From a virus, in IMG/VR virus record IMGVR_UViG_3300031521_000015: a DNA stretch of 64,000 bases; one strand, given 5' to 3'. How positions within the stretch are numbered: position 1 is the stretch's first letter; the number at the start of each line of letters is the position of its first letter. Below the pieces are notes generated by a model, which worked only from the letters and a program-made list of their open reading frames with translations, ran no database searches and was not told the origin of the DNA. The position numbers and the translations under genes were made by a program. Below are positions 8,213 to 59,430 of this stretch, piece after piece.

Positions 8213-9526
8213 ATGACAAAATTTTCACCAAATCAATTACCAAATCTAAAAACATGGATTTCAGCAGATAGCACGGGGTTAGCTAATAATAGTAATGTAC
8301 CAGTATGGTATGACAAAAGTGGTAATAATTTAAACTTTACACAAAGTGCTACTACACAACAACCACTATTAGTATATAATGCATTGAACGGTTATCCAGT
8401 AGTTAGATTTACTGCTTCCTCAACACAAACAATGACATTAGCTTATACTTTTTCAAATCCTGTAACAGTTTTTTATGTTGCAAAACAAAATGGTGTAACA
8501 AATGGAAGAATGTTGTCTGGACTATCTAACAATTGGCTTTTAGGATTTCATAGTGGAGGAAGACAAAGATCTTATTTTGAAGGATGGACTTCTGTATCTT
8601 CAGGAAATCCACTCTCAAACACAACGCCTTATATTTATGATTGTGTCATTCAAGGTGGATCAATAGCTTCAAAAGCCTATGAGAATGGTACTATATTTTC
8701 AAATAGTACAGCAGGAGTAACAGCACCTAATGGACTATCATTAAATGGACATTTATCAACTAGCGAATTTTCTGATGGAGATATTGCAGAACTGATTGTG
8801 TATAATTCAGCCTTAACAGATTCAGATAGGCAACTAGTAGAAACCTATTTAGCTTATAAGTACAATATCCCAGTATCTACATATTCATATCCAAAACAAA
8901 TAGGAGACTTTCAGCAACTAGATATATATTCATCTAATTTGTGGTATGAACTTACAGAGTTAGTAACATTTAATGGAAAATTCAAACATATCGCAGATAA
9001 AAATATAAAATATATTGCAAAAATAAATAGTGATATTATTACTAGTACAGATTTCATATCTCCATTAACTAATTATATAAATTTTCAAATAGATTACACA
9101 AAGTTAAATGTGGGAGATAATCCATTAATAATTTATATTACTGATTCAGATAATAATCAATCAACCTTTATATATAATGTTGTTAAAGAAAATAGAGATA
9201 CAAATTCTATGAATAGAAGTACACTATATGCTTCAGAATGGAATTTAGACAATAATAATATAAAGTTTGATGTAGATGGTGGAATTACATTGCAAGGCTA
9301 TGGTCAAAATATTGCAACTACAAATCATTATTCTCACATTAATACAAAAGGAAAAGCTAAGATTATTGATATTGATATTGAAGGTAAAGATGATATAACT
9401 GAGGTTTTAGATTATGTAAGAGATATGAATAATTATCAAACAGTAGATTCTGGAATTATATGGACACAAGATTTAGAAATAAATAAATATAAGAATGTAA
9501 ACAATATTACAACATTAAGAAAATAA
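8213..9526 (+). CDS. LamG/concanavalin-like domain virion protein
   Basis: WISAD...WYDKSGN...LNGYPVVRF...GDIAELIVYNSALT...VETYLAYKY signature. Confidence 0.7.
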   Translation: MTKFSPNQLPNLKTWISADSTGLANNSNVPVWYDKSGNNLNFTQSATTQQPLLVYNALNGYPVVRFTASSTQTMTLAYTFSNPVTVFYVAKQNGVTNGRMLSGLSNNWLLGFHSGGRQRSYFEGWTSVSSGNPLSNTTPYIYDCVIQGGSIASKAYENGTIFSNSTAGVTAPNGLSLNGHLSTSEFSDGDIAELIVYNSALTDSDRQLVETYLAYKYNIPVSTYSYPKQIGDFQQLDIYSSNLWYELTELVTFNGKFKHIADKNIKYIAKINSDIITSTDFISPLTNYINFQIDYTKLNVGDNPLIIYITDSDNNQSTFIYNVVKENRDTNSMNRSTLYASEWNLDNNNIKFDVDGGITLQGYGQNIATTNHYSHINTKGKAKIIDIDIEGKDDITEVLDYVRDMNNYQTVDSGIIWTQDLEINKYKNVNNITTLRK

Positions 9527-16843: not shown

Positions 16844-19800
16844 ATGCAATATGATAACGACTTAAATTCATATATAATAATTAATAGAAGTAATGTTCAA
16901 AATGAAGCTTATGCAAAAATTGATATAGATTCTGTCAATAATTTAAATAGTACAATTACAGTTAGATATAATGATGAATCAGTACAAGACGAAAATGTTT
17001 CATTATCAAGTACCTTAACTATTCCAATAAAGAACAAAATGTTTGGTACTGTAGATATAGTCAAAACACAAAAAATAACTCAAATTATACCTTGCTTAAA
17101 AGATGCATTCGTGAGATCAGACCAACCAGTTCTAAATTACGGAAAAGAAAAAGATTTATTAGTTGGTTATTCATCTTCTTTTGATGGAATATTTAGAACA
17201 TTCATGGACTTTAATTTACTTCGATTACAAAAAGGTTTAATAATAACAAAAGCAACAATAAAAGCAACTAGGATAAGTACTGATAATTTTATTCCTAACT
17301 TAGAAGTATACGAATGTTTAAATAGTTTTGATGAAAATGATATTACATGGGATAACCAACCTCCAATGGGAACTCTACTTGAAACATTCCAAGGTGGAAC
17401 TTCACTAGGTCAGAAATATATATATTGTGATGTTACAAATAGTATTATTGATTGGTACGAAGGAAATAGATTCCAAACAGGATTTGTTTTTAAATCTTCA
17501 GACGAAACTTATAATCAATATGGTAGAACTTATTCAAGAGAATCAAGTTTTACTCCTATATTGGAAGTTGAGTATTTTAACCCTAATCCTCCTAGCTATG
17601 GGTCAGCAATATTAAATAGTAAAATAAGTGTAAAAATACCTGCAAAAAATGAATTAAATTGTACTATAATAGTTCCTGAATATGATTTTAATAATGATTT
17701 AGATAGTACAATAACAGTTAGAAATAATAGTTATTTAGATTGTAAATTACAAGTATTAACAGACGCATTAAATAGTAAAATCAATGTTGCAACAGGAGTT
17801 AATTTAAATTCTATAATAAAAGTTAAAATAAATACTGCTAGAGATTTCAATTCACAAGTTGCAGTATCCCAACCTAATATTAGTTGTAAAATAACTGTAG
17901 TTAATAATTATCAAATGCCTTGTATTATAAATGTTACACAAATTAAGGATTTAGATTGTAAGGTGAAAGTTAGAAGATATGATATTAGTGAACTAAATTC
18001 AAATATTAAAGTTACTAATATTTTAGACTTAGTTAGTAAACTTGCAGTAAGACGTAATGAATATAAAGATTTAAACTCTAAAATAATAGTACGAAGAAAA
18101 GATGTAAGTGAACTGAATTGCACAATATCTACCACAAGATTTAGTGAATTATCATCAAAGATAACAGTTAGAAGGTATAATTATAATGAGTTAAGTTCGA
18201 TAATTAAAGTCAGAAGATACGACATTAATGAATTAAATAGTAAAATTTTAGTTATGTTTACCAATGACTTAGATTCTACAATTAAAGTTAGAAGGTCTGA
18301 AGATAATGATTTAAATTCCATAATTAATGTAAGAAGATATGACGATGGTAGCATTGATAGTACAATTTTAATTTCATTATTTGAAGAATTGGGTTGTAAG
18401 ATTTTAGTTAGTAAGGGCGAAGTTGATTCTATAATAAAAGTAAGAAGATATTTAGATGATGATTTCAATGGAATAGTAAAAATATCTCCAACAAGTGAAT
18501 TCTTAAGTAAAATAAAAGTTACCAATTATAAAGAATTAAATTCTAAAATATCTGTTAGAATACCTTCTGCAAAAGATTTATCAACTAAAATAACAGTAAG
18601 AGATATGTCTACAGTAGATTGTATCTTGAATGTCAGAAGATATGACAACAATGAATTCGATTCACAGATTACAGTTAGAAGAAATGATATAACTGATATC
18701 AATTCAAATGTATTAGTCAGAAGAAATGAAAATATTGATTTAAATTCAACTATTCATGTAAGATTTGTCGATGGTAAAAACGATATCTCAAGTAAGATGT
18801 TTGTATACATTACAGATACTAATGATTTAGATTCTACTATCTTAGTAATTAATGAAGGTACTGAGGATTTAAATTCTATAATCAAGACTAGACCTTCCAA
18901 TAGAATGTTTGGTATTGTAGATATATTACCAGCTCCTAAAGTTAATTTGACATTAAAGCCGGTACAAGATGCTTATACCAGAAGTCAATTACCTACATTC
19001 AACTATGGTAGCGAAATTGATATGTATGTTGGTAATAATAGTGGAGAATTATATCGCTCATTCTTACAGTTTGATTTAAGTGGGATACCTACAACTAGGG
19101 TATTTACAAAGGCTATTTTAAAATTACATAGTAATACGTCTTATTATACAAGTGGTATTCAATTAGATGAAGTAAAAGATTCTTGGTATGAAAATGATAT
19201 AACTTGGAATAATCAAGAAGATTCTTTAAGTACAATAAAAGCTGTTTCTAGCGTTAGTGGAAGTATTATAGAAATTGACTTAATGTATATAATTGATAAT
19301 TGGTTCAATGGTAGTATGCTACAAAATGGATTTATAATTAAATCACTTGATGAGTCAATTCAACAAAGACTAAGGCTTTATTCTAGGGAAAGTGTTTATC
19401 CACCTACCTTAGAAATAGAGTATTTTGATACTACAGTAAAGAGTAATGTTTCTAATGATTTTTTAAGTAAAATATTCGTAATGAGTGTTGAAAATAAAGA
19501 TTTAAGTTGTTCAATTACTGTACCTAATTATAATTTAGAAAGCGATTTAGATTCATCTTTGGTCGTAAATAATAATGGATACTTAGATTCTAAAATTACT
19601 GTTATTCGTGGAGATTTAGATTGTAAACTAGTTGTAAAAAGGAATGAAGAAAATAATTTAGATTCCTTATTAAAAGTTAGATTAAATGAAATAAATGAAT
19701 TATCAAGTACAATTATTGTAAATAATCCGTATATAAATTCTATCATAACAGTAAAACGTAATGAAATAGATAATATTGATAGTAATTTAATTGTCCGAAG

Positions 19801-20632
19801 AAATGAAATATTATCATTAGACTCTAAAGTTGTAGTAAGAAGAAATGAATACAAAGAACTTAATAGCAAAATCATAGTAAATAATCCTGATATAGCTAGT
19901 ATAATTAAAGTTACACCTACAAGTGAGTTATATTCAAGTATTATAGTACGAAGAAATGACGTTTTAGATTTAAATAATAAATTAAGTGTAACTCAACGTA
20001 GCGATTTAAATTGTGTAATCAATGTTCTAACAAATGAATTAATAGGTTGTATAATTAAAGTAAGAAACACTTGGGATTCAGAATTAGATTCTAAAATCAT
20101 AGTAACTACTTATAATAATCTAGATTCATTAATAGAAGTAACCAATCACGCAAACTTAAGTTCTACTATTAAAGTTAGAAGATATTCAGATATTGATCTT
20201 AATTCAAAAATCAATATAATAGCAAATGATAATTTAGATAGTAAGATTAATGTTATTAAACCATCTTATTTAAATTCAGTAATTAAAATAAGGAATACTA
20301 AAGAAATTGATTTAAATTCAAAAATTGATATTATATCAGTAGAAAATTTAGATTGTATAATTAGAGTTGCTAAAGGAGATATTTCTTGTAAGATTAAAGT
20401 TAGAAGAAATGAATACAATGACTTAGATAATAAAGTAGAGATTACTCCTACTAATGATTTAAATGGTATTATTTCAGTATCAAATATTTCAGAATTAAGT
20501 TGTAAAATAATAACTAGGACTCCTTATAATAATGATTTGAGTTCTAAAATAGAAGTTTTAGGAAGTTTATCTGATTTAGAATGCAAGATAGTTGTTGGAA
20601 ATAAAATTATTGGATATGTGTTTATAATGTAA
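16844..20632 (+). CDS. Repeat-rich protein with two DNRLRE-like (disaggregatase/CBM96) domains
   Basis: Two copies of DA..RS..P..NYG.E.D..VG...R.F..F.L...ITW.NQ...W..G...GF...YSRES...P.LE.EYF, separated by many L(N/D)(S/C).I.V(RR) repeats. Confidence 0.7.
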   Translation: MQYDNDLNSYIIINRSNVQNEAYAKIDIDSVNNLNSTITVRYNDESVQDENVSLSSTLTIPIKNKMFGTVDIVKTQKITQIIPCLKDAFVRSDQPVLNYGKEKDLLVGYSSSFDGIFRTFMDFNLLRLQKGLIITKATIKATRISTDNFIPNLEVYECLNSFDENDITWDNQPPMGTLLETFQGGTSLGQKYIYCDVTNSIIDWYEGNRFQTGFVFKSSDETYNQYGRTYSRESSFTPILEVEYFNPNPPSYGSAILNSKISVKIPAKNELNCTIIVPEYDFNNDLDSTITVRNNSYLDCKLQVLTDALNSKINVATGVNLNSIIKVKINTARDFNSQVAVSQPNISCKITVVNNYQMPCIINVTQIKDLDCKVKVRRYDISELNSNIKVTNILDLVSKLAVRRNEYKDLNSKIIVRRKDVSELNCTISTTRFSELSSKITVRRYNYNELSSIIKVRRYDINELNSKILVMFTNDLDSTIKVRRSEDNDLNSIINVRRYDDGSIDSTILISLFEELGCKILVSKGEVDSIIKVRRYLDDDFNGIVKISPTSEFLSKIKVTNYKELNSKISVRIPSAKDLSTKITVRDMSTVDCILNVRRYDNNEFDSQITVRRNDITDINSNVLVRRNENIDLNSTIHVRFVDGKNDISSKMFVYITDTNDLDSTILVINEGTEDLNSIIKTRPSNRMFGIVDILPAPKVNLTLKPVQDAYTRSQLPTFNYGSEIDMYVGNNSGELYRSFLQFDLSGIPTTRVFTKAILKLHSNTSYYTSGIQLDEVKDSWYENDITWNNQEDSLSTIKAVSSVSGSIIEIDLMYIIDNWFNGSMLQNGFIIKSLDESIQQRLRLYSRESVYPPTLEIEYFDTTVKSNVSNDFLSKIFVMSVENKDLSCSITVPNYNLESDLDSSLVVNNNGYLDSKITVIRGDLDCKLVVKRNEENNLDSLLKVRLNEINELSSTIIVNNPYINSIITVKRNEIDNIDSNLIVRRNEILSLDSKVVVRRNEYKELNSKIIVNNPDIASIIKVTPTSELYSSIIVRRNDVLDLNNKLSVTQRSDLNCVINVLTNELIGCIIKVRNTWDSELDSKIIVTTYNNLDSLIEVTNHANLSSTIKVRRYSDIDLNSKINIIANDNLDSKINVIKPSYLNSVIKIRNTKEIDLNSKIDIISVENLDCIIRVAKGDISCKIKVRRNEYNDLDNKVEITPTNDLNGIISVSNISELSCKIITRTPYNNDLSSKIEVLGSLSDLECKIVVGNKIIGYVFIM

Positions 20633-20818: not shown

Positions 20819-21076
20819 TGCTTCTCCTTAGGATGATTATGTGGTTAATATAATATTATAACATATATTTTTGATAAACACCACAGAACCATTCATTTTT
20901 ATAAAATCGAAAAAGTTATTCTACTTGCAACTCTGCTTTTGAATGCCATTTAAATTCAATTGTATTAAAGGTAAAAGAAAGTCTAAAAATATTGGCGTAA
21001 TAGAATTAGAATTAATGATAATACTTTCATATTTATACTGGCCACAACATTAAGAATTAGGATTTTTGTTTTAAAT

Positions 21077-21104
21077 TCGATACATAACTAAGATTATCAG
21101 TCCA
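21077..21104. other. dif/res-like tyrosine recombinase core site overlapping the recombinase promoter
   Basis: TCGATACATAA-CTAAGA-TTATCAGTCCA (11-6-11, ATAA-N6-TTAT); extended -10 TGGTATAAT at 21110-21118. Confidence 0.55.
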
Positions 21105-21138
21105 AAACATGGTATAATAGTTATGGAGGTATATAAAG

Positions 21139-21963
21139 ATGAATAATTTACAAATGTTTAGAGAATACTTGGCCAAGCAAGAAAAAAGTAATAAGACTAT
21201 TGAGGCCTATATGAGAGATATAAATCAATTCATGGCCTATGCAAAAGAAAATAAGATATTAGAATTTCACAATGATACAATGAAGGCCTACAAAGAATAT
21301 TTATTATATGAAAGATTCTTATCTCCTACTTCGGCCAATAGAAAACTTGTGGCCATACATCAATTCTTTGCTTTTATTGAAGTGTCGGCCACAACTACAA
21401 AAGTAAAAATACAATCACAGAATTTCTTAGAGAATGTAATTAATAAGGCTGATATAGAAAATATAATTGATATTGCTAAGGCCAAGAAGGATTATAGAAC
21501 GTTGGCCATAGTAAAAACATTGGAATTGACTGGCCTAAGAATAAGTGAAATGCTACAACTTCAAATAAAAGACATACATAGTAATACAATACAAATTGTT
21601 GGCAAGGGAAATAAGATTAGATCTGTATTTATTCCCAAGGCCTTGAATGATGTTTGGTTAAATTATTGTAGATTGGGCCGAATGAATAAAGGTTGTGATT
21701 ACCTGTTTGTAGGAACTCGTGGCCATATGACTAGAAGTGGTGTAGATAAAGTTTTAAAGAAATATGGTAAGTTGGCCAATGTAAAAAAGGAGAAAAATCA
21801 TGCACATTCATTTCGCCATCAATATGCAAAACGGTTAATAGATTCTGGTTTGGCCATTGATATTGTAGCCGATTTATGTGGCCATGGTAGTATTGAAACA
21901 ACTCGGATTTATACCAGAAAGAGTAAAGAAGAATTATTAAATGTTATAGAAGATTTGGATTAG
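21139..21963 (+). CDS. Tyrosine recombinase (XerC/D-like), GGCC-rich
   Basis: Complete catalytic set: TGLRISE, GKGNK, HSFRH, LCGH, TTRIY. RBS GGAGG. Confidence 0.9.
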   Translation: MNNLQMFREYLAKQEKSNKTIEAYMRDINQFMAYAKENKILEFHNDTMKAYKEYLLYERFLSPTSANRKLVAIHQFFAFIEVSATTTKVKIQSQNFLENVINKADIENIIDIAKAKKDYRTLAIVKTLELTGLRISEMLQLQIKDIHSNTIQIVGKGNKIRSVFIPKALNDVWLNYCRLGRMNKGCDYLFVGTRGHMTRSGVDKVLKKYGKLANVKKEKNHAHSFRHQYAKRLIDSGLAIDIVADLCGHGSIETTRIYTRKSKEELLNVIEDLD

Positions 21964-21999
21964 GCCAAAGATATTAAAATTAAATATTAGATTATTTTT

Positions 22000-22031
22000 A
22001 GAGTTTGTATGAATTGTACAAGCTCTTTTTT
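22000..22031 (+). terminator. Terminator after recombinase 1
   Basis: AGAGTTTGTA...TACAAGCTCT followed by a T tract. Confidence 0.65.
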
Positions 22032-22074
22032 GTTGCGTGGAATTATAAAAATTGAATTAGAAAGGAATGGGGAT

Positions 22075-22611
22075 ATGGGCAAATATTCAAGTAAAAAAGT
22101 TGATGATCCTAAATGGGGAATTTTCGACAGCACAACAGAATGGAAATATTGGAATGAACTATTAAAGCAACAAGAGAAAGGAGAGATAAACAATTTAGAT
22201 AGACAAAAACCTTTCTTATTAGTGCCAGCCTTTAAAGATTCCCACTACGAAAATAAAGGAATTCGTAAAATGGAATATATTTCTGATATGAGCTTTATTA
22301 GAGATGGTCAACTAGTCGTTGTTGATGTAAAAGGTAGTCTTTATAATATTACAAATGAAAGTAAGTGCAAGATAAAGATGTTTAAATACTTAAATCAAGA
22401 TACACGTTTTGAATTAATTGTTACATATGATAGCAGATGGTTTAACTTAGAAGATAAAATAGAAAAGAAACAGTACACTGAATTAGTTAAACAAAAGAAA
22501 AGTGAAAAGAAAGCTAGGAAAGAAGTTAGGGACAAATTAAAAGCTGAGAAAGATAAGAATGTTAGTAAAAAAAAAGACAAAATAAAACAATTAAGAAAGG
22601 ACTTGATATAA
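22075..22611 (+). CDS. DUF1064-family protein (PD-(D/E)xK-like nuclease fold)
   Basis: KYSSKK...FDS..E..Y..L...GEI.NL.RQ.PF.L...YISD...VVDVKG. Start reassigned to ATG 22075 on RBS grounds. Confidence 0.75.
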   Translation: MGKYSSKKVDDPKWGIFDSTTEWKYWNELLKQQEKGEINNLDRQKPFLLVPAFKDSHYENKGIRKMEYISDMSFIRDGQLVVVDVKGSLYNITNESKCKIKMFKYLNQDTRFELIVTYDSRWFNLEDKIEKKQYTELVKQKKSEKKARKEVRDKLKAEKDKNVSKKKDKIKQLRKDLI

Positions 22612-22612
22612 T

Positions 22613-23581
22613 ATGGCAAAAGAAAAAAGAAAACATGTTCAATATACAACTCCAAAATTGATAGAACAAATAAATCCACAAAATAAAGAACTTTGGAGGA
22701 AATATCTTAATGGGAAAAGACAGTTAGCTGAGTCCTCTAAGAATTCATATACTTCAGATATAAACCAATTCTTTGTTTTTATATTAAAAAATTATGATAA
22801 TAAATACATATTTGATTTTGAAACTGAGGAAATGGCAGATGTTGTTGAAGATTTTCTTGCACTATGTCAAAGCGTATTTGAAAATAAAGATAGACGTATG
22901 CAACGTAGACTGTCTAGTATCTCATCATTATATCTATATTATAAAAAGAAAAGAAAAATCAAAGAAAATGTAGTAGATTTATTAGAAAGACCTAAAGCTC
23001 AAAAAGGAGTTTATGAAATAAAAAGAGTATTTCTAACACAAGAACAAGTAGAAACGATAAGAGAAGGATTAAAAGAAAGAAATAATACTCAATTAACATT
23101 AGTATTTGAATTAGGGTTATTTACTATGGCTAGAGTTAATGCTATATCTACTATTAGATTAGACCAGATTGACTTAGAAAATAGGGTTATAAGAGATGTA
23201 ATCGAAAAAGAAGGATATTCTATTACGTTCAATCTCAATGATAGATGTATAGAATTAATTAAACAATGGTTGAATGAAAGAAAAGAAAAAGGAATTGAAT
23301 GTGAGCATTTATTTGTTACTAATTATAATGGGTGGAGACAAGCTTCAGTTGGACAATTTAAAAGTACATGGATAAAACAAATAGGGGCTATTATCAATGA
23401 ACCTGAATTATCCATGCATGATTTAAGACATAGTGGCAGTGACCTTAGATATAAAGCAGGTATGAGTCTAGAAGCAGTCTCGAAGGCGTTATCCCATAGA
23501 TCAACGGGTGTAACAAAAGATTTTTATTTGCAAGAAGATACCGAATCTTTAAAACAAGAAATGCTAAAGTTTGATATTTAA
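22613..23581 (+). CDS. Second tyrosine recombinase/integrase
   Basis: MARVNAI (R), EKEG (K), HDLRH, LSH, FY catalytic motifs. Confidence 0.85.
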   Translation: MAKEKRKHVQYTTPKLIEQINPQNKELWRKYLNGKRQLAESSKNSYTSDINQFFVFILKNYDNKYIFDFETEEMADVVEDFLALCQSVFENKDRRMQRRLSSISSLYLYYKKKRKIKENVVDLLERPKAQKGVYEIKRVFLTQEQVETIREGLKERNNTQLTLVFELGLFTMARVNAISTIRLDQIDLENRVIRDVIEKEGYSITFNLNDRCIELIKQWLNERKEKGIECEHLFVTNYNGWRQASVGQFKSTWIKQIGAIINEPELSMHDLRHSGSDLRYKAGMSLEAVSKALSHRSTGVTKDFYLQEDTESLKQEMLKFDI

Positions 23582-24494: not shown

Positions 24495-24560
24495 AATCTA
24501 ATAATAACATACGAAAATCGGATAAGCAACATGTCGTTATGAGGTAAATAATTACAATTT

Positions 24561-24638
24561 TAAGGGAGTCTAAATATAATTTAAATATTTTTTGCATTAA
24601 TTTGCAATTAGTATCTAATCTATATTTAGACTCCCTTA
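24561..24638. repeat. Perfect 18-bp inverted repeat at the convergence of the two genome arms
   Basis: TAAGGGAGTCTAAATATA - 42 nt - TATATTTAGACTCCCTTA, followed by T7. Confidence 0.75.
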
Positions 24639-24720
24639 TTTTTTTCATTTTTTAGTTTTCCTAAAGCAATGGTTTATAATAATAGTATGACCTATGTATT
24701 GGATATTATTCATTATTATT

Positions 24721-25929: not shown

Positions 25930-28006
25930 CTATACACTCACTTTCATTTTAATAATTCCCATATTTTTATAATCTTCTAAAGCAATACCGTCTATGGTGA
26001 AGTCATAAAAATTAGTTATGTCAGGATTTAATTTTAGTTTAGGGGTTATAGAATAAATATCTTGTAATTTACTATATTCTTCGTGCGTTATATCTTTATA
26101 ATATTCATTATAAGTATCATAATTATATACACAACTTTGTAACCTCTCATATCTTTCTAATTGTTCTCTCATGCCTTCAATTTGATTTTCATAGATATGA
26201 GCATTATTTATAATATGAGTAAGTTGCCCTACTTGTAATCCAGTAGCTTGTGCAATCATATGAGTTAAAACTGCATATTGCGTTGTATTAAAGGGAACGC
26301 CCAATGGAATGTCTCCTGACTCTATTTTCAATAAGGTTCGTTAAACCTTACCCGTTTCAACTCCATTAATTGAAACTGCTATATATTACTATATAGAAAA
26401 GACTATATCACAATCCTATTAGTATTTCAGATAGGATTCCCTGCTTTTCCCGTCACCTTGCATTATGCAACCTCCAATAACTTGAGGGGTACTCTACTCG
26501 CTTCTATTTAATAACCTTTTATATTTATCAAACATGCTTTCGATAGTCGTTAGACATTTAATTATTATTTGTGTTTTTATATGTAATAATAATTAGGAAA
26601 GTTTTTTGATTTTATTCTATTTAATATTGTTGTAGGTGTCACCCCTAGTTGTCTAGAAGCTTCGGTTAGACTTTCGTATTCATCTTCTTCTATTTTTACT
26701 TTTTTCATGTTAGGAGGTTTCTTTCCTAATTGTTTTTCTCTAATTTTATTTTTCGATTCCTCAGAGTGATGTTTCCCATAAAAACTATTTAATTCTCCAA
26801 TTTTTAATTTTGCTTTATCAGATAAGTTATTTTTAATTTCGACAGCCTTTTCTTCTCCAAAGAACTCATAATAAGTTTTTCCTTTTATGTCTCGATAAGC
26901 ACCTGTGTTTTTTTGAGAAATTTTATTTTTCGATTTTTCAGAATGATGTCTGCCATACATTCCATTATCTTCTCCTTTTCTTCCGTATGTATTGCTTAGT
27001 TCTTCTTTTGACATTTTAGACATATTTTCTTTTCTAGTTTCTAATCCTTTTTCTATAATTAGTTTCTTATTGGGATGATACGATAACAAATCACCACCAT
27101 CTTTAGCCTTTTTAGATATGTTATATAACATATCTTTATAATTATCTATATAATATTGTTCAATTTCTATACTTTCAATTTCTGTATTACAAATTTTATA
27201 GATTTCAAATTCAAAATTATTTTCACCATATTTATTCCACGCTCTTTGCAAGTGCTTATTATGATGTTTATTTTTTCTTAGTGCTGACTTATGAGAATTA
27301 AATCTTTGATTTATATTAACTGAATGACCTACATAAAATTTATTATTAAGTAAATTTTTTATAAAATACGTTCCTATCATTATTTATTCACCTCCTTTTT
27401 ATTTTAATAACACAAATAATAATATTTAGTACGGGATTGTCTTATAAATATAAGAGTTTCCCCGTTTAACAGGGTTTTCGATAGGTATTACTACCTAAAG
27501 ACGCTCTTTTACAAACGTTGTATAAGCATACAATTCAGTTTACCATCTGTCACATCCCAAATAGTTTGATAACAACAAGGTTGTAATTGCATTTCTGGTA
27601 AATCTTCAATATTCCATAAAGAAATAATCATTCTTCTATCTTGTGGATTAGTTTTTAAAGTTTCAATAAGTTTATCAAGTTGTTTATATTTTGCTATTTG
27701 ATACCCATAAGCTTTTCCTATAGTATTATTCTTATCAACCCATTCATCCCAAATATGAACATTTTGATTTTGTAATAATGTAACATCATTTGACTGTTGT
27801 TGCCATATCCATAACATTTCTTTTGTAGCTGTTTTAAAAGCCACCTGTTTAGTTTTTAATATAGGAAACTCCTTTTGTAAATCCACTTGTATTATTTGAT
27901 GTGGTAGTTTATATGTTGGCATACCTGTTCTATTATTATCGTAGTATCCATATTCTATTATATTTTTAACTATATTCATATATTGAACTTCATAATTACT
28001 TATCAT
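25930..28006 (-). CDS. thyA: Thymidylate synthase split by a group I intron (exon 1 28006-27515, exon 2 26319-25930)
   Basis: Joining gives ...LQPCC...LIQR|[11 protein letters not shown]...NAHIYENQ; both exon lengths are multiples of 3. Confidence 0.93.
26320..27514 (-). mobile_element. Group I intron in thyA
   Basis: 5' exon ends in U, pairing with IGS GAGCGU; intron ends in G. Core motifs include AAACGGGGAAA, AAUCCCGUAC, AACGACUA and GAUAUAGUC. Confidence 0.9.
26577..27380 (-). CDS. Intron-encoded GIY-YIG homing endonuclease with NUMOD3 repeats
   Basis: GTY...FYVGHS..I.QR...H...LQRAWNKYG...E...YN; YG(R/K)HHSE.SK.KI repeats; C-terminal HTH. Confidence 0.9.
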   Translation of the reverse strand: MIGTYFIKNLLNNKFYVGHSVNINQRFNSHKSALRKNKHHNKHLQRAWNKYGENNFEFEIYKICNTEIESIEIEQYYIDNYKDMLYNISKKAKDGGDLLSYHPNKKLIIEKGLETRKENMSKMSKEELSNTYGRKGEDNGMYGRHHSEKSKNKISQKNTGAYRDIKGKTYYEFFGEEKAVEIKNNLSDKAKLKIGELNSFYGKHHSEESKNKIREKQLGKKPPNMKKVKIEEDEYESLTEASRQLGVTPTTILNRIKSKNFPNYYYI

Positions 28007-30694: not shown

Positions 30695-32248
30695 TTATTC
30701 TAATCTTAAATAATTATTTGTTATACCTAATCCATTATATTCCTGTACTGTCAAATCAAAATCTTTAACTAATTGTTTTTCTTCTTCGTTCATGTCTGAA
30801 TATTTCTTTTGCCCAAAGTCTGGAGGTAATGCGTTTAAGCCCTTTCCTGCTAAAATATTAAAAATCTCTAATGCTCTTTTATCTTTATATACTATGTGAA
30901 TTGTACCCTTTTTAAAACTCGATAAATAAAAGTGAGGTGTATCAATATTCTTTTCACATTTTTTAATAGATTCTATTATATCTCTATTGTCTATATCATA
31001 ACTATCGCCTTGTATGTTATTGAAGATGATATTTAAATCTTTTAATGTATCGGGAACTCTATATAAATAATCTCCATAGTATCTTATAATTGATTTCTTA
31101 TTTATCTTATAACAACTATTAGTTTTCCAACCACTGTATAAATAAATATTGCTATTCCATGTTGAATCTGAATAATACCCCTTATAAGTGAGATCTTCAA
31201 AAACTTTTGCAACAGTTTCTTCATAACTTTTTGGAATAGCTTGTATTAATTGTTCATAGAAATAGTGAATATTATTCATGTTAAAAGATATATTTCTTTG
31301 TTTTTCCATATTGCAATTAAAATTATCTCTTAATTTAGATGGTAATTTCTTTTTAAAATCAGTTTCTTCTATAAATTTGTTCCAATATTGTAAATTAGTC
31401 TTGTCTAAATAGTCATTGATTGATAATTGTTTAGGAGTCGATGTATCATCACATATGCTAACACCAGAACTTATTCCAAACCCATTTAATAATTTATTTA
31501 TTTTCATTTTTTCTTTAAATAATTCTGTAGTTGCTTTTTTAACCATATCACACTCTAATACTAAAGATTGAAGTTTTGTCATTTGGGGAAGTAATGCTTG
31601 AAAATTATCAACATCTATATCAGGATTATCTCTTTTAAAATGTCTTTCAAATATAGATTCATCTTTTTGCATTGGAACATTTATGTATATTAAAGCAGTT
31701 TCTACATCTGTTTTTCGTTCTGAATCACTAAAGGCGTTTTGAATATATTCTATTTTTCCATTGTATTGTTGTATTTGATTTATTAATTCTTTTCTTGTAT
31801 TACTATATGGATTTTTTATGGTTTCTGCATTTAACAAACCTACAATTTGACCACCTATTCGTTTTTGAATTTCCAAACATCGTAAAAAATGTTTATCTCC
31901 TTGTTCAAATGGAGGATTTAGAATTATTAAATCATAAAATCTTTGTGGATCATATGTAAGAAAATCATCATGTACAAGATTGTAACCTTTCCCTCTTAAT
32001 AGATTTGCTAAGTTTTCATCTAATTCTATTACATCAAATACTAAGTCTTTCTCTGCCCTATTATTTCCCGACCAAAATTTATTAGAATATTGTTTATCGT
32101 AATATTCCTTATAGTATTCAATGATATTTCCCTTACCAGCACTCGGCTCGAGAACGTACTTAAAGCCTCTTATTTCTGATATCTTATCTAACATTTTAAA
32201 AACTAAGTTTTTAGGGGTTGGGTAGAATTGGTCATTGTCAGTAAACAT
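30695..32248 (-). CDS. Amino-DNA methyltransferase (DUF4942-type)
   Basis: QFYPTP, VLEPSAGKG (SAM binding), ILNPPF (catalytic), C-terminal FKKGTIHI. Confidence 0.8.
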   Translation of the reverse strand: MFTDNDQFYPTPKNLVFKMLDKISEIRGFKYVLEPSAGKGNIIEYYKEYYDKQYSNKFWSGNNRAEKDLVFDVIELDENLANLLRGKGYNLVHDDFLTYDPQRFYDLIILNPPFEQGDKHFLRCLEIQKRIGGQIVGLLNAETIKNPYSNTRKELINQIQQYNGKIEYIQNAFSDSERKTDVETALIYINVPMQKDESIFERHFKRDNPDIDVDNFQALLPQMTKLQSLVLECDMVKKATTELFKEKMKINKLLNGFGISSGVSICDDTSTPKQLSINDYLDKTNLQYWNKFIEETDFKKKLPSKLRDNFNCNMEKQRNISFNMNNIHYFYEQLIQAIPKSYEETVAKVFEDLTYKGYYSDSTWNSNIYLYSGWKTNSCYKINKKSIIRYYGDYLYRVPDTLKDLNIIFNNIQGDSYDIDNRDIIESIKKCEKNIDTPHFYLSSFKKGTIHIVYKDKRALEIFNILAGKGLNALPPDFGQKKYSDMNEEEKQLVKDFDLTVQEYNGLGITNNYLRLE

Positions 32249-41203: not shown

Positions 41204-42070
41204 CTATATCTTGATTAATTTTAGTACCTTCTCAATTTCATTAGCTATTTCAACTATATTTGCAGTTTGTTCTTGAATTCCTGCTGATATTTCTTCCATT
41301 CCAGCAGATGTATCACTCATGCTAATATTAATTTCTTCTATATTAGCAATTCTAGTTATACTACTTTGTTTTAATTTTATGCTATTTTCTTTTCCAGTTT
41401 CAGTCTTTGTAAGTATAGTAGTAACCATAACTTGAAGTTCTTTTATTATTTGGCTTATCGTAGAACTAAAACCTTTTGATTGTTCTGCTAACTTTTTAAT
41501 TTCATCTGCTACAACTGAGAACCCTTTGCCATATTCCCCAGCTCTGGCAGATTCTATACTTGCATTTAATGATAAAAGATTTGTTTGGTTTGCAATTTCT
41601 TTAATAGCTTCTGTTATTTTAGAAATATCTTGCATTTTAATATTTAAATCATTCGCATTATCATAAATATTTTCAATATCGCTACTAAATTTATCCATTA
41701 TTCCACCATTGTTTTTAGCACTTTCGTATGCACTATTAACTCTTTCGGCTATGTTAAATATAGTTGCGTTGATCTCTTCTACTGTAGCCGTAAACTCCTC
41801 TGATATACTTGCTGAGGAATCAATGGCATTACTAATTGATTCAGTATCTTTTAATAGTCTTAAGGTTATTTCTTGTACTGATTTCTTATATTCTTCAAAT
41901 AGCTTATTCTTGGTTTCTAACTCTGTATTTAGTTCGTTATTTTGTAATTCTAATTTATTTATTTTGTTCTCATTTTCCTTTTTGATTATTTCTAATTTTT
42001 CATTCATTAGTTTTTCCATTGATTCTCTTGCTTCTTTTATACCTTTTTCATTTTTAAATAATTTCATCAT
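41204..42070 (-). CDS. Soluble methyl-accepting chemotaxis protein signalling domain
   Basis: [40 protein letters not shown] hairpin tip; no transmembrane or sensor domain. Confidence 0.9.
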
Positions 42071-54805: not shown

Positions 54806-57800
54806 TTAATAACATACCCATGAGTCTATACAAAGATTAAATTCATTAGGCACAACTTTCCAATTTCCGTTATCATCTTTATGCTTTTTAGGCTTTTTAG
54901 ATTCACTAGTTATTTGCACAATATCCTTTTCCTCAATTGGATTATCATAAAAATATAAGAAATCAGATAGTTTATATTTTATTAAATCATTTGTATGTAA
55001 ATCGTACATTGTTAGATATCTTGTTATTGACTTCTTATTTTTAAATTCATCTATTTTTATAACATAATATAAACTATCATTTTCTACTTTTGTTATCGGA
55101 TATCCCAAATACTCTATTTCGGCAGATATTTTTTCTTTTAAAGGTACGTCTTTGTTTTCTATATTTTCTATGAGTTCATTTATCAAAGATTCAACATCAA
55201 CTTCTTTAAATATCTTTTCTGTTTCTTTTTTAGCATATCTTTTTATAATATCCTCTGTTAGTCCCATTGTTATTAAATCAACTTTTTTGAATTGTTTTCT
55301 GCTACTTAAATCAGTGTATTTGTTATATACTTCTAATAACTTTTTAGATTTACCGAATTCGGTAAAATAATCTAATAAAATCAAAGCTGTTAATTGTCTT
55401 GAATTTATATCTACTTTTTCTTTTATATCTTTTAATAAATCTATAAAAGTATTATAGGCATTGTTTTTTAATTCATATAATTGATTTGCACATGTTTCAT
55501 TTAAATATTTAATTGATCCAACACCTTTATAAATTGTATTTGTTTCTTTATCACACATGTATTCACCTTTAGAATATCTAAACTTAGGATTTTGTATATT
55601 TATATTTTTAGCTTTAGCAAGGGCTATTCCATTATCTATATCAGCTTGGTCTTCAGCATTATTTAAATATGCAGTAGTATACTCTAATGGATAATAATAT
55701 CTTAGTCTTGCACACATATAACCATTCATTGAATATCCTGTGCTATGATTATATCCAAATTGATATTCCGAGGAATCTGAAATTATTTGTATAAACTGTT
55801 TTGCTTCTTTTTCAGCTATTTCTCTTGGTTGATCTGATTTATTACAATAACCTTCTAATATTTTTGGGAGTTGTTCTTTTAGTAATTCTAAGTCTTTTTT
55901 TCCTATAGCTCTTCTTGTAGTATCGGCTAAAGAACCACTAAAGCCACATATTTCTTGTAAAAATGCAATCGAATCTTCTTGAAATACCAAAAATCCTTTA
56001 TTAGCCTCTAATAACTTATCTATTATTTCAGATGGATTTTTATTAAATTCCCCACTAATTAATCTATTTCTATAAGACTTTCCTGATGGTCTAAGACTTG
56101 CATTTACTAATGACATATCGTTTATTGCATGTGGTTTAAATTTAGATAATAAATCAAATGCATAATCTCCTTCGAATTGAAATATTCCAGCATTACTAAT
56201 TAACATATCACTCCACACATTATCATCGTCCCAATTAATTTCATGTGCTTCTTCCCATTTTTTATTTAATAATTTATATGTATCTTGAATTACACCTATA
56301 GTTTTCAGTCCTAATATATCAAACTTTACATAATTCAATGAATCTACTGCCTTCATAGCACAAAATGAAACAGGAAAATCTTCATCTCCTCCTTTATAAA
56401 ATACACCCATATTATCAAATAGAGTTATTGGACTACCTATCATTCCAGAAGGATGATTTCCTTTGGCTATAACTGTTCCTTTTATTCCATCAAAGTAATA
56501 GAATAATTCTTTATTATCTTCTCTTAATGTATCCCATAACGTTTTTAATTCTTTAACTCTTTTTAACTTTTCTTTATTTCTAATTACATTTATATATAAT
56601 TTGTAATCATCAAAATTAGGTGATTTAGAAGTTGCGTTGTCTAATTCTTCCAAGTTAACTTCTTCTTGTATTATTTTAGAATACTCATCGAAGATATTAT
56701 CAAATTCATTTTTAATCTGTTTAACTAAATCTAAGTCTTTATAATTTAATCCTTTGGCTAATACATCAATACTACCTCTATCTTGAATAGTACTAAGTGA
56801 TAATATATATGATACATTCTTATTTCCAAATCTTTCTATGATATACTTATATACTTTTATTCTATCTTTTGGAGCAAAGTCTTCATCAATCCTTGATACC
56901 GTTAGTTTCCTAATACTTTAACACTCAATTAAGAGTCGGAGTAGACTATATCTTCATCCTATATAAATAGGAGTTCGGCACTACGGATTTGGACTTTCAC
57001 CATGCTTTAATCCTCTTAGAGTTGTATTCCAACTCATTTTAGTCGTTTGACCTTCAAGTAGATTTCTCTACAAGCTTGGCACAGGATTACCATCGTCTTT
57101 ACGTTAAGGCTTCCCCTGTTAGCATAATCATTAATACTCATTTCCTAGCATTACTATTCGTTGATTATACACCTTATACTTATAAGTTCACCGAATTTTT
57201 TATACTATACATTACTGTATAGGGTGACTATCAATGTGTTCTTTTAATTCTAAATAAATATGATACTTTCTATTTAAATAAATATTTGAGTCCTTGTATA
57301 TAAAATCTAAAAATCTAAACGAATTATAATTTCCACCAAATTTAAAATTACTAACTATTTGTTCAGATTTTCTTTTATTCAAAGGATATTCTCTTAATAT
57401 AGCATTATTATCTAATAAATACTTCATAATAAACTGCAACAAGTCATTAGTTCCAACGAAACCAATATTTACTTGTGTATTACTATCTTGTTTCCAAATA
57501 CTTCCGTCTCCGTCGAAATATCCTCTAATAAAATCTTTTATATATTTATAAGGAATTGTATTAGGAGATGTTATTATATCAGTTTTATTTTCATATACAC
57601 CATGTTTTATTAAATCATTTGTTAATTTCTTACTTACATATATAACTCTACAATATTTATTTCCTATCCCAAATCCAGCAGTTTCTATATATTTATTTAC
57701 TGGTGTATTGCTATTTAAACAATAATTTAGTTTTTGCAAATGACTTTCGTCTTTAATACCTAAAGAAATTCCTAAACTTCTATTAGCGTGTTTTCTTTTA

Positions 57801-59430
57801 GATGTTATAAAGCCATCAGCATATACAAAACCTAACCAATATGCTTTATCTTCGGTATCTATGTTTTCAAAGTAGTTTTCATTAAAACTGTATTGTTTAG
57901 AATTAACACTATTATCTCTTAAGGGTAAATCAAGTTTATTAAACCATCTATATAAATATCCTTTACTTAATTCATATTTTTCTTCTAATTTTAAAGCAGA
58001 AGTCCCATTAATATATTCATTATAATATATATCAATAATTGTTTCCTTGGAAATTTTCATTTTATACTCTTGATTCATAATTCTCACCTCCTTTATTTTA
58101 ATTTATTATATCATATTTATTTATTATTTAGAACTATTTTGTTATTTTAATCACCAAGACTTATTCTATCTGCATTACAAAATCTTGAAAATACTGTGTG
58201 CCACTTAATAGGATCTACAGTAATTATATCAGTTATATATGCTATAATGCTTCCTCCTACGCTTCCCCTACATGGGCTAGAATGTATATCACTATTTCTA
58301 GCCCACTCCATAAGTTCTGACATAAACATCATAAAACTTTCCATTCCTAACTTAGACATTACATCAAATTCTTCTAATATTGCTTTTTTGTATTCTTCTA
58401 ATTTAGAAACATCTATAATATTGCGTTCCTTTTTATCTTTTAACATTTTAAATATTCTATTTTTCCATAATAATTTTGAATTATTACCATATAAATTTGG
58501 GTATTTAAATGTTTTATCTAATGTAAACTCTTCTACCATATTAGATAAAACATTTGTATTATTAATTGCTTCAAGTACAACTTCTAATGGTAAGGAATTT
58601 TGTATTTTAAATGATTCTACTAATTCATCATATGTTTTCCATATTAAATCAAACTCATCTTCTTCTCCATAAAAACTATCTTTAGCTTTTTGTAAAACTG
58701 TTCTACATTCGGCTTTATATTTATTAGATGAATGAGTATCTGTTCCACTTATTAGTGGTATATTATATAATTTAGACCATTCATATAATTGACTATTAAA
58801 TTCTATTTGACTATTACAATTATGATATTGAATCTCTAAAAAACATCTATCATTGTGTTTAGATAACCATTGTAATAATTCATCTCTTTTTTGTAAATTA
58901 TATTCATATTGTTTTCTACCTTCTTCGGTTTCATTACCTTCTACGTCATTTAATATATCTTTATTGCCTAATTTACATAGTGGAGAAGCTAAACAAGCAG
59001 TAGTAATTATAATATTATCACTTGTATTCATGAGTTCTTCAAATGATATTCTAGGATTATAATACATGTGTCTATCTGATTTATCCTCTTTTACTCCTTT
59101 TGAAGTCGCCATTGACATAAGAGTATTTAGTTCTTTAACTCCTTCCCAATTCTTTCCATACAATCCTATATGATATCCTCTAGTATTGTCCTGAAGATTA
59201 ATACATAAATACAATTCAACTCCATGTATATATTTAATTCCATTTTTATCACAGTATTGTTTCTTTTTAATCCAATCATATATACCACCATGATTACTGA
59301 ATGCTATTGCTTTCATTCCACATTTTTTTGCTAATTTAATATATTCTTCATATTTAGTACATGAATCAGCATATCCATTACAGTTAGATGTGTCATCATG
59401 TAAATGATGTACAATGTAGTTTTCTTCCAT
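54806..59430 (-). CDS. dnaE: DNA polymerase III alpha subunit split by a group I intron (exon 1 59430-58150, exon 2 56890-54806; ~1121 aa)
   Basis: PHP domain (HHLHD, NHG, GVE, TDTH); RGSVGGS; spliced LGD|IDEDF catalytic motif; HPSG, KFDILGL, GIFQF, FGYNHSTGY. Confidence 0.92.
56891..58149 (-). mobile_element. Group I intron in dnaE
   Basis: Exon ends ...GGUGAU, pairing with IGS GUCACC (57223-57228); terminal G at 56891. Core motifs CAGGGGAAGCC, AAUCCUGUGCCAAG, AACGACUA and AAGAUAUAGUC. Confidence 0.88.
57212..58087 (-). CDS. Intron-encoded LAGLIDADG homing endonuclease
   Basis: AYWLGFVYADG and FIRGYFDGDG motifs; C-terminal IYLNRK. Confidence 0.9.
   Translation of the reverse strand: MRIMNQEYKMKISKETIIDIYYNEYINGTSALKLEEKYELSKGYLYRWFNKLDLPLRDNSVNSKQYSFNENYFENIDTEDKAYWLGFVYADGFITSKRKHANRSLGISLGIKDESHLQKLNYCLNSNTPVNKYIETAGFGIGNKYCRVIYVSKKLTNDLIKHGVYENKTDIITSPNTIPYKYIKDFIRGYFDGDGSIWKQDSNTQVNIGFVGTNDLLQFIMKYLLDNNAILREYPLNKRKSEQIVSNFKFGGNYNSFRFLDFIYKDSNIYLNRKYHIYLELKEHIDSHPIQ

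Follow-up and report, generated by a model that had tools for sequence, protein, structure and literature searches.

The window analyzed here, a 64,000-nt stretch (record positions 8245–72244, minus strand) of the 130,085-bp IMG/VR virus record IMGVR_UViG_3300031521_000015 (~74% complete by CheckV), carries a tyrosine recombinase gene, rec1, that is filled with the tetranucleotide GGCC, the HaeIII/BsuRI site, within a phage genome from which that word is otherwise almost gone. The GGCC array is real and specific to this word, operates on DNA, and remains under both positive and purifying selection, and it is not explained by any described mechanism. We tentatively propose, at rather less than an even chance, that the array is a switch which ties the rec1 cassette to the GGCC restriction-modification state of the host.

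Distribution of GGCC in the phage genome

The window has a GC content of 27.1% and contains 18 GGCC sites, every one of which lies within positions 21040–21966 (starts at 21040, 21171, 21204, 21234, 21285, 21333, 21351, 21387, 21480, 21504, 21532, 21639, 21676, 21721, 21774, 21852, 21880, and 21963). Sixteen are inside the rec1 coding sequence (CDS), one is 99 bp 5′ of the ATG, and one spans the TAG stop codon (TAG-GCC). This count and placement are exactly those reported in an initial annotation made from the sequence by eye, which had also found no GGCC in the other ~63 kb of the window; the count there is indeed zero, including the second recombinase gene, rec2. The word is no more common in the rest of the genome, as the whole record contains 19 GGCC compared to the 41–45 expected, 18 of them within 0.93 kb and the single further site at record position 93579.

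With rec1 masked, GGCC occurs in the record once against 36.8 expected (ratio of 0.03), and similar deficits were seen for GCGC (0/20.5), CGCG (1/9.6, 0.10), CCGG (3/25, 0.12), and, to a lesser degree, GATC (88/305, 0.29). GCNGC is absent, as are CTGCAG (0/10.5) and GGTACC (0/9.3), while non-palindromic GC-only 4-mers (e.g., GCCC and GGGG) occur at the expected frequency. Outside rec1, then, the phage genome displays classical restriction-site avoidance. The flanks of related loci avoid GGCC, GCGC, CGCG, and CCGG as the window does. When 1.55 Mb of fetched DNA, consisting largely of related loci, was scanned for palindrome clusters, the GGCC array was the only extreme one (p = 1e-33 to 1e-44), with the next best (p = 1e-11) being compositional in origin.

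Saturation of the rec1 coding sequence

Of the 19 dipeptides in rec1 that are able to encode GGCC, 16 do so. A synonymous codon shuffle within the gene (20,000 trials), a check that the initial annotation had proposed, gave 4.7 ± 1.6 GGCC with a maximum of 12, which the 16 CDS sites exceed, and resampling the rec1 codons from the phage's own usage gave 0.29 on average and never more than 4. A chance origin of the array is therefore excluded. The codon choices behind the sites are those described initially, namely, NNG-GCC pairs with Ala otherwise encoded by GCA or GCT: 12 of the 13 GCC Ala codons in rec1 fall within GGCC, and 5 of the 6 GCA/GCT codons follow F, Y, I, or H, the codons of which are unable to end in G. 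Genome-wide, GCC makes up 5.6% of Ala codons and GGC 6.2% of Gly codons, compared to 13/19 and 5/12, respectively, in rec1. The rec1 mRNA showed no excess of structure relative to shuffled controls (z = −0.89).

Lineages carrying the array

Three sublineages of rec1 carry the array. The window-type gene was identical on the 23 contigs that were read, is indexed in 51 collection blocks, and has the 18 GGCC described above. The L099 sublineage, with 90% nucleotide identity to the window, also has 18, all in the CDS and stop codon, and the L002/L003 sublineage (85% nucleotide and 87% protein identity) has 14 in the gene and 1 upstream. The closest other homologues (57–72% protein identity; L090, L100, L001/L057, L004, L005, and L006–L009) have no GGCC in the gene, and ~45 further homologue loci fetched from viral and bacterial genome collections showed no enrichment of GGCC or any other 4-mer. 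The expectation that homologues would share the enrichment thus held in these three sublineages (15–18 sites in or next to the gene) and failed in the closest other relatives and in the ~45 further loci. No other enriched word was found in the ~55 homologue loci scanned for 4-mers (5- and 6-mers in four loci), and pattern scans of metagenome and viral collections for further array lineages or junctions, in which near-identical records were out of scope, returned no match. Since the relatives avoid GGCC yet lack the array, the array arose on one branch within a clade from which the word had already been purged.

Selection acting on GGCC as a DNA word

The protein itself has been altered in the array lineage in a manner that permits more sites. 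GGCC-capable dipeptides number 19 in the array lineage and 7–12 in the nearest relatives, with ~10 replacements at variable positions having made X-Ala or Gly-X pairs (LI>LA, MD>MA, KE>KA (twice), SV>SA, PV>SA, KN>KA, KV>KA, VK>LA, and DV>GL); a further site was created by an AGA>CGA codon change after Gly. Many of the sites require two or three coordinated changes, as at codons 167–168, where both the window and L099 have AAG.GCC in place of AAA.GTA (a V>A replacement and two synonymous changes). These replacements occurred in a protein under strong purifying selection, with a dN/dS of 0.076 (dS of 0.86) between the window and L002.

Several sites, judged by comparison with outgroup codons, were gained independently after the sublineages split. 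At codons 112–113, the window has ATT.GCT and the outgroups ATA/ATT.GCT, in comparison with TTG.GCC in L002 and GTG.GCC in L099, and a G-L-A tripeptide is written with its site at GGC.CTA in L099 but at TTG.GCC in the window. The upstream non-coding GGCC lies at −99 in the window and −81 in L002, in homologous DNA but in different alignment columns (~20 bp apart), and therefore represents separate gains, which argues for a signal in DNA rather than in mRNA or translation. Decay of sites by 5-methylcytosine deamination was considered as the source of the differences between lineages and rejected, as the outgroup codons show mostly gains and not losses; the only changes that fit deamination are the loss of site 32 in L099 (GCC>ACT) and the GGTC at the L002 stop codon.

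Once gained, the sites have been retained. G/C third positions are kept at 18/24 and 19/21 positions inside GGCC versus 13/37 and 12/32 elsewhere (p = 0.004 and 0.00015, respectively). Over the 1.4 kb of flanking DNA that could be aligned, the window and L002 have in common none of the 10 other GC-only 4-mers, compared to 12 shared GGCC sites. Given such rapid turnover in the flanks, the lack of GGCC in the remaining 129 kb must be actively maintained, and both the purge and the array are under current selection. It follows that the effect of whatever reads the word would be harmful in other genes and useful, or at least survivable, in rec1.

Considering the palindromic nature of the word, the non-coding and stop-spanning sites, the lack of excess structure in the mRNA, and the amino acids changed to permit sites, we conclude that the signal acts on double-stranded DNA. 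The central claim of the initial annotation, that a DNA-level signal overlies a functional coding sequence, is therefore borne out by the saturation, the replacements, the independent gains, and the retention.

The rec1 gene and its cassette

The features of the rec1 cassette and its neighbors are listed in Table 1. Judged from its sequence, rec1 encodes an intact Xer/Cre-like tyrosine recombinase, with Pfam matches to PF00589 (1e-31), PF02899 (3e-10), and PF13495 (2e-8) corresponding to a C-terminal catalytic domain and an N-terminal SAM-like core-binding domain. Among solved structures in the PDB, it is closest to XerA (9e-24) and XerD (5e-20), with the XerA/XerD/XerC matches ranging from 9e-24 to 3e-19. 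R134, the lysine of the GKGNK hairpin, H223, R226, H249, and Y258 show no variation among 25 homologues and align with XerA residues, which, together with the dN/dS value, agrees with the earlier observation that all catalytic residues are kept. We found no near relative of the rec1 gene in plasmid and phage databases.

Table 1. Features of the rec1 cassette and adjacent genes (window positions).
Feature	Position	Strand	Remarks
Upstream non-coding GGCC	21040–21043		34 bp before the dif-like site
dif/lox-like 11-6-11 site, TCGATACATAA-CTAAGA-TTATCAGTCCA	21077–21104	+	Overlaps the −35 region of the rec1 promoter; without GGCC
Extended −10 promoter, TGGTATAAT	21110–21118	+	Read from sequence; kept in L002, L099, and more distant homologues
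Ribosome-binding site, GGAGG	21125–21129	+	Read from sequence; kept in L002, L099, and more distant homologues
rec1, 274-aa Xer/Cre-like tyrosine recombinase	21139–21963	+	16 internal GGCC
GGCC over the TAG stop codon	21963–21966		In the window and L099; GGTC in L002
Intrinsic terminator ending the rec1 transcription unit	22000–22035	+	Predicted
DUF1064/PHROG 190 Holliday-junction resolvase	22075–22611	+	True start ~22075; without GGCC
rec2, second tyrosine recombinase (322 aa)	22613–23581	+	Without GGCC

A dif-like core (ACATAA-N6-TTATC/G) occurs at the same upstream position across the rec1 family and overlaps the −35 region in nearly all members (L002, L004–L008, L057–L061, L090, L099, and L100). 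This arrangement suggests that the cassette may be a Cre/lox-like, self-repressing unit, in which rec1 would serve as a Cre/Xer-like resolution or integration enzyme. GGCC is absent from the −10 element, the −35 region, and the dif-like site, the nearest copy being the upstream non-coding one.

We found no att junctions at the rec1 cassette. The upstream DNA that differs in L099 is a conserved phage element and not host DNA, and a tRNA or Rfam element that could serve as attB upstream of L099 was sought and is not present. This conserved non-coding element lies ~40–130 bp upstream of the dif-like site in L099 (positions 1–130), L090, L059, L061, L006, L008, and L058. It consists of a CG-rich part (...GCGAACGA...ACGACGAG...) followed by ACTACTAYACTTTGAGTTAWGGAAA, has no Rfam match, is missing in the window and L002, and could represent accessory recombination sequences or an RNA.

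The rec1 module is located where the late and early transcription arms converge, at the turning point of the cumulative GC skew. The neighbors of rec1 differ between the window and L002: the gene upstream encodes a tail fiber in the former and a T5orf172 protein in the latter, and the resolvase is of the DUF1064 type in the former and RusA-like in the latter (7037–7609 in L002), a non-orthologous replacement in the slot that separates the two recombinase genes. We also noted a 52-nt inverted repeat (77% complementary, with a 6-nt loop) at 24545–24654, where the two transcription arms converge.

Search for an enzyme that reads the array

No match to the C5-methyltransferase family PF00145 was found in the 130-kb record, which is incomplete as stated above, or in five related phage records (two of which are 95–99% complete), while positive controls were matched in both searches. 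The link drawn initially to the GGCC methyltransferases of SPbeta-type phages (M.SPbetaI, M.phi3TI, and M.SPRI) accordingly finds no counterpart in this phage or these relatives. Likewise, the N4/N6 methyltransferase families PF01555 and PF02384 had no match in the record. The HaeIII-type nuclease family PF09556 also had none, but it failed to match the control genomes as well, making that search uninformative. Pfam and PHROG scans of 21 early-region open reading frames (ORFs) and the rec1 neighbors returned no candidate reader.

The sole methylase-like gene that we found encodes a 517-aa DUF4942 protein (30698–32248, minus strand) with a sub-threshold match to Dam, and is probably a phage adenine methyltransferase. 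It is also present in GGCC-free relatives. Such an enzyme would shield sites that contain adenine and not GC-only words, which would fit a purge that is strongest for GC-only palindromes. At the locus matching this gene, L007 has a gene of the Eco57I/N6_Mtase type. The reader of GGCC is probably a host enzyme or one encoded in an unsampled part of the genome and, given the lack of a recognizable GGCC enzyme in the phage, is most likely a host HaeIII-type restriction-modification system.

A possible switch linked to host restriction-modification

Who reads the array, and what follows when it is read, we infer along these lines. The array overlies a putative Cre/lox-like cassette from the upstream DNA through the dif-like site, promoter, and rec1 CDS to the stop codon, and, because GGCC is kept out of the remaining genome, this cassette would be essentially the only phage substrate for GGCC-specific DNA enzymes. 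A host-dependent switch placed here would act on a recombinase of maintenance or lysogeny, and two routes may be envisaged. In a host that methylates GGCC, the ~36 methyl-cytosines within 0.93 kb could damp rec1 expression in cis, where small additive effects per site would account for selection toward saturation. In a host that restricts GGCC, unmodified phage DNA would be cut at the cassette alone, removing a function that is dispensable for lytic growth. Dam sites are known to control both the promoter of P1 cre and the transposase of IS10. For the first route, removal of four VchM sites (one in the 5′ UTR and three coding) in Vibrio cholerae led to increased expression of groESL-2 (PMC8559950).

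Several points weigh against such a switch. A cut at the array would normally kill the incoming genome and, unless survivable, would cancel the benefit of the purge. Among the 23 longest contigs with the neighboring resolvase gene, we found no variant deleted for rec1, and a search for flanking direct repeats able to seal a deletion gave none that were convincing. The precedent for repression by gene-body 5-methylcytosine involves only the four VchM sites and a modest effect (PMC8559950). Finally, relatives with the same cassette have no GGCC in rec1, so any benefit must be specific to the ecology of the lineage or to a lineage-specific factor.

If the host-linked switch is correct, the phage might, although we hold this with considerable doubt, lysogenize or persist only in hosts whose modification it already carries, and in foreign restricting hosts might give up nothing but the recombinase, by loss or silencing, and remain lytic, amounting to kin discrimination by means of the host's own immune system. 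More broadly, and with the same doubt, purging a host restriction word everywhere except in the integration/maintenance cassette might be a general, undescribed phage strategy in which the restriction-modification state of the host decides on stable lysogeny.

Alternative explanations

A GGCC binder unrelated to restriction-modification, of phage or host origin (e.g., a domesticated restriction- or methylase-like protein), could instead use the purged word as an address with zero background to silence, mark, or organize the cassette without cleavage or methylation. One logic would then cover the absence of the word elsewhere, its density here, and the bracketing of the cassette by the array, including non-coding DNA, and a benefit confined to one lineage would be expected if the reader were itself lineage-specific. 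The gene for such a reader could also be missing from a record that is ~74% complete. We nonetheless regard this explanation as unlikely, as there was no candidate reader among the 21 early-region ORFs or neighboring genes, the rec1 neighbors differ between the window and L002, and a word of 4 bp would serve an ordinary regulator poorly as an address. Furthermore, GGCC has been purged across the clade in the same way as three other GC-only palindromes, resembling restriction avoidance.

Another explanation is that breaks made by a GGCC nuclease at the replication terminus stimulate recombination-dependent replication, prophage exchange, or genome processing. The location of the array would suit this, adjoining a resolvase and a second recombinase at the convergence of the transcription arms and the turn in GC skew, and the phage has genes for a ligase, a PD-(D/E)XK nuclease, and a RecD2-like helicase. 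Site patterns are also shared among the sublineages in conflicting ways (37 and 39 vs. 80 informative positions), which is compatible with recombination inside rec1. However, gene conversion normally works against a cut allele, the limits of the array are those of one transcription unit as opposed to those of an intergenic hotspot, and relatives have the same module without the sites. We consider a break hotspot improbable.

Somewhat less probable still is a signal in RNA, whereby GGCC in the rec1 mRNA is the target of an endoribonuclease or RNA-binding protein or builds structure. Seventeen of the 18 sites would be transcribed, and MazF-type RNases have recognition words that are enriched in selected mRNAs; however, GGCC is palindromic and identical to a classical restriction site, sites have been gained independently upstream of the predicted promoter, the mRNA shows no excess of structure over shuffled controls, and we know of no GGCC-specific RNase.

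We give very little credence to the attenuation of translation, in which the rarest codon pairs (NNG-GCC and GGC-CNN) would hold recombinase synthesis very low. The contrast in GCC and GGC usage between rec1 and the genome would accord with it, but GCC is almost restricted to places where a G-ending codon can precede it, the protein sequence was altered to make sites, and there are sites outside the coding sequence and over the stop codon. The same effect could, moreover, be had at no cost by weakening the ribosome-binding site. Very-short-patch-type repair is known to enrich methylase target words genome-wide. A non-adaptive origin (GGCC-rich import, biased mismatch repair, or chance) is nevertheless effectively refuted: the rec1 protein, promoter, and dif-like site all nest within the phage family; the enrichment does not extend beyond 0.93 kb; many sites could arise only through two or three coordinated changes, and sites are retained against AT-biased turnover; and chance is ruled out by the shuffle statistics and cluster scan.

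Comparison with known systems

To our knowledge, restriction sites in phage DNA have been described only as liabilities removed by selection. In this phage, selection is reversed in a single gene, rewriting ~10 amino acids of a conserved enzyme while the other 129 kb are purged. Our literature searches found no account of a purged genome in which one gene is filled with a restriction word to its coding limit. The avoidance of restriction sites (palindromes) in phage genomes has been surveyed (Rusinov et al. 2018, PMC6286503), and the near loss of GGCC, GCGC, CGCG, CCGG, GCNGC, CTGCAG, and GGTACC outside rec1 is of this kind. In contrast, the saturation of one gene with the same word has the opposite sign of selection, and no local enrichment is described in that work (PMC6286503).

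Clusters of methylation sites offer a closer likeness. Dam GATC clusters gate DNA transactions at oriC (with SeqA), P1 pac, the P1 cre promoter, and the IS10 transposase. As with these clusters and the VchM RCCGGY sites in groESL-2 (PMC8559950), a short methylatable palindrome is clustered at one locus; several such clusters control a recombinase or transposase, and gene-body sites can act in cis. Those clusters comprise 2–11 sites, mostly in regulatory DNA, with a known cognate methylase, whereas here 18 sites reach the coding limit, the protein is altered, the word, a restriction target of a lethal type, is purged elsewhere, and no phage methylase was found for it.

The cassette resembles Cre/loxP of P1 and XerCD/dif in having an Xer-family recombinase beside a dif-like 11-6-11 site (CATAA-N6-TTATG type), in a phage related to the plasmid-prophage c-st. 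It differs in that the module has two recombinases and a Holliday-junction resolvase. We know of no GGCC-type overlay for Cre or Xer. The HIP1 palindrome of cyanobacteria is similarly a short palindrome kept by selection and imposed on coding sequences; unlike GGCC, of which 18 of 19 copies fall within 0.93 kb and which is excluded elsewhere, HIP1 is found genome-wide. The array implies that enzymes acting on short DNA words, most likely those of host restriction-modification, interact with the recombination/lysogeny machinery of a phage in a manner not previously recognized, and could reveal a new way for phages to sense their current host.

The phage and other features of the window

The genes of the phage include those for DNA polymerase III alpha, a RecD2-like helicase, a gyrase fusion, NrdD, ThyA/DHFR, and a ligase. 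Related records are ~196 kb in length, one of them with direct terminal repeats, and rec2 shares 68.6% nucleotide identity with the XerC/D-family recombinase of the Clostridium phage c-st. The clade would appear to consist of c-st-like large temperate phages or phage-plasmids of Clostridium.

The end of the record (129906–130039) lies inside a promoter/leader element with 92% identity to phage G001 (~20008–20142). G001 was considered as a continuation of the record and rejected, the promoter/leader element being all that the two have in common; such repeated leaders probably break assemblies of the phage.

Two genes in the window are interrupted by endonuclease genes. The thymidylate synthase (25930–28006, minus strand) is encoded in two ORFs split by a GIY-YIG/NUMOD3 (I-TevI-like) endonuclease gene (26577–27380), which looks like an intron or mobile insertion, and the DNA polymerase III alpha gene (54806–59430, minus strand) is split into PHP/N-terminal and finger/HhH parts by a LAGLIDADG endonuclease ORF (57212–58087). 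A 288-aa protein (41204–42070, minus strand) contains a methyl-accepting chemotaxis signaling domain (PF00015, 5.5e-32), which is an unusual cargo for a phage. Lastly, a gene encoding a 1262-aa CBM96 tail fiber-like protein (16844–20632) contains many degenerate repeats, with spacings that are mostly near multiples of 42 nt (42, 78, 114, and 120).

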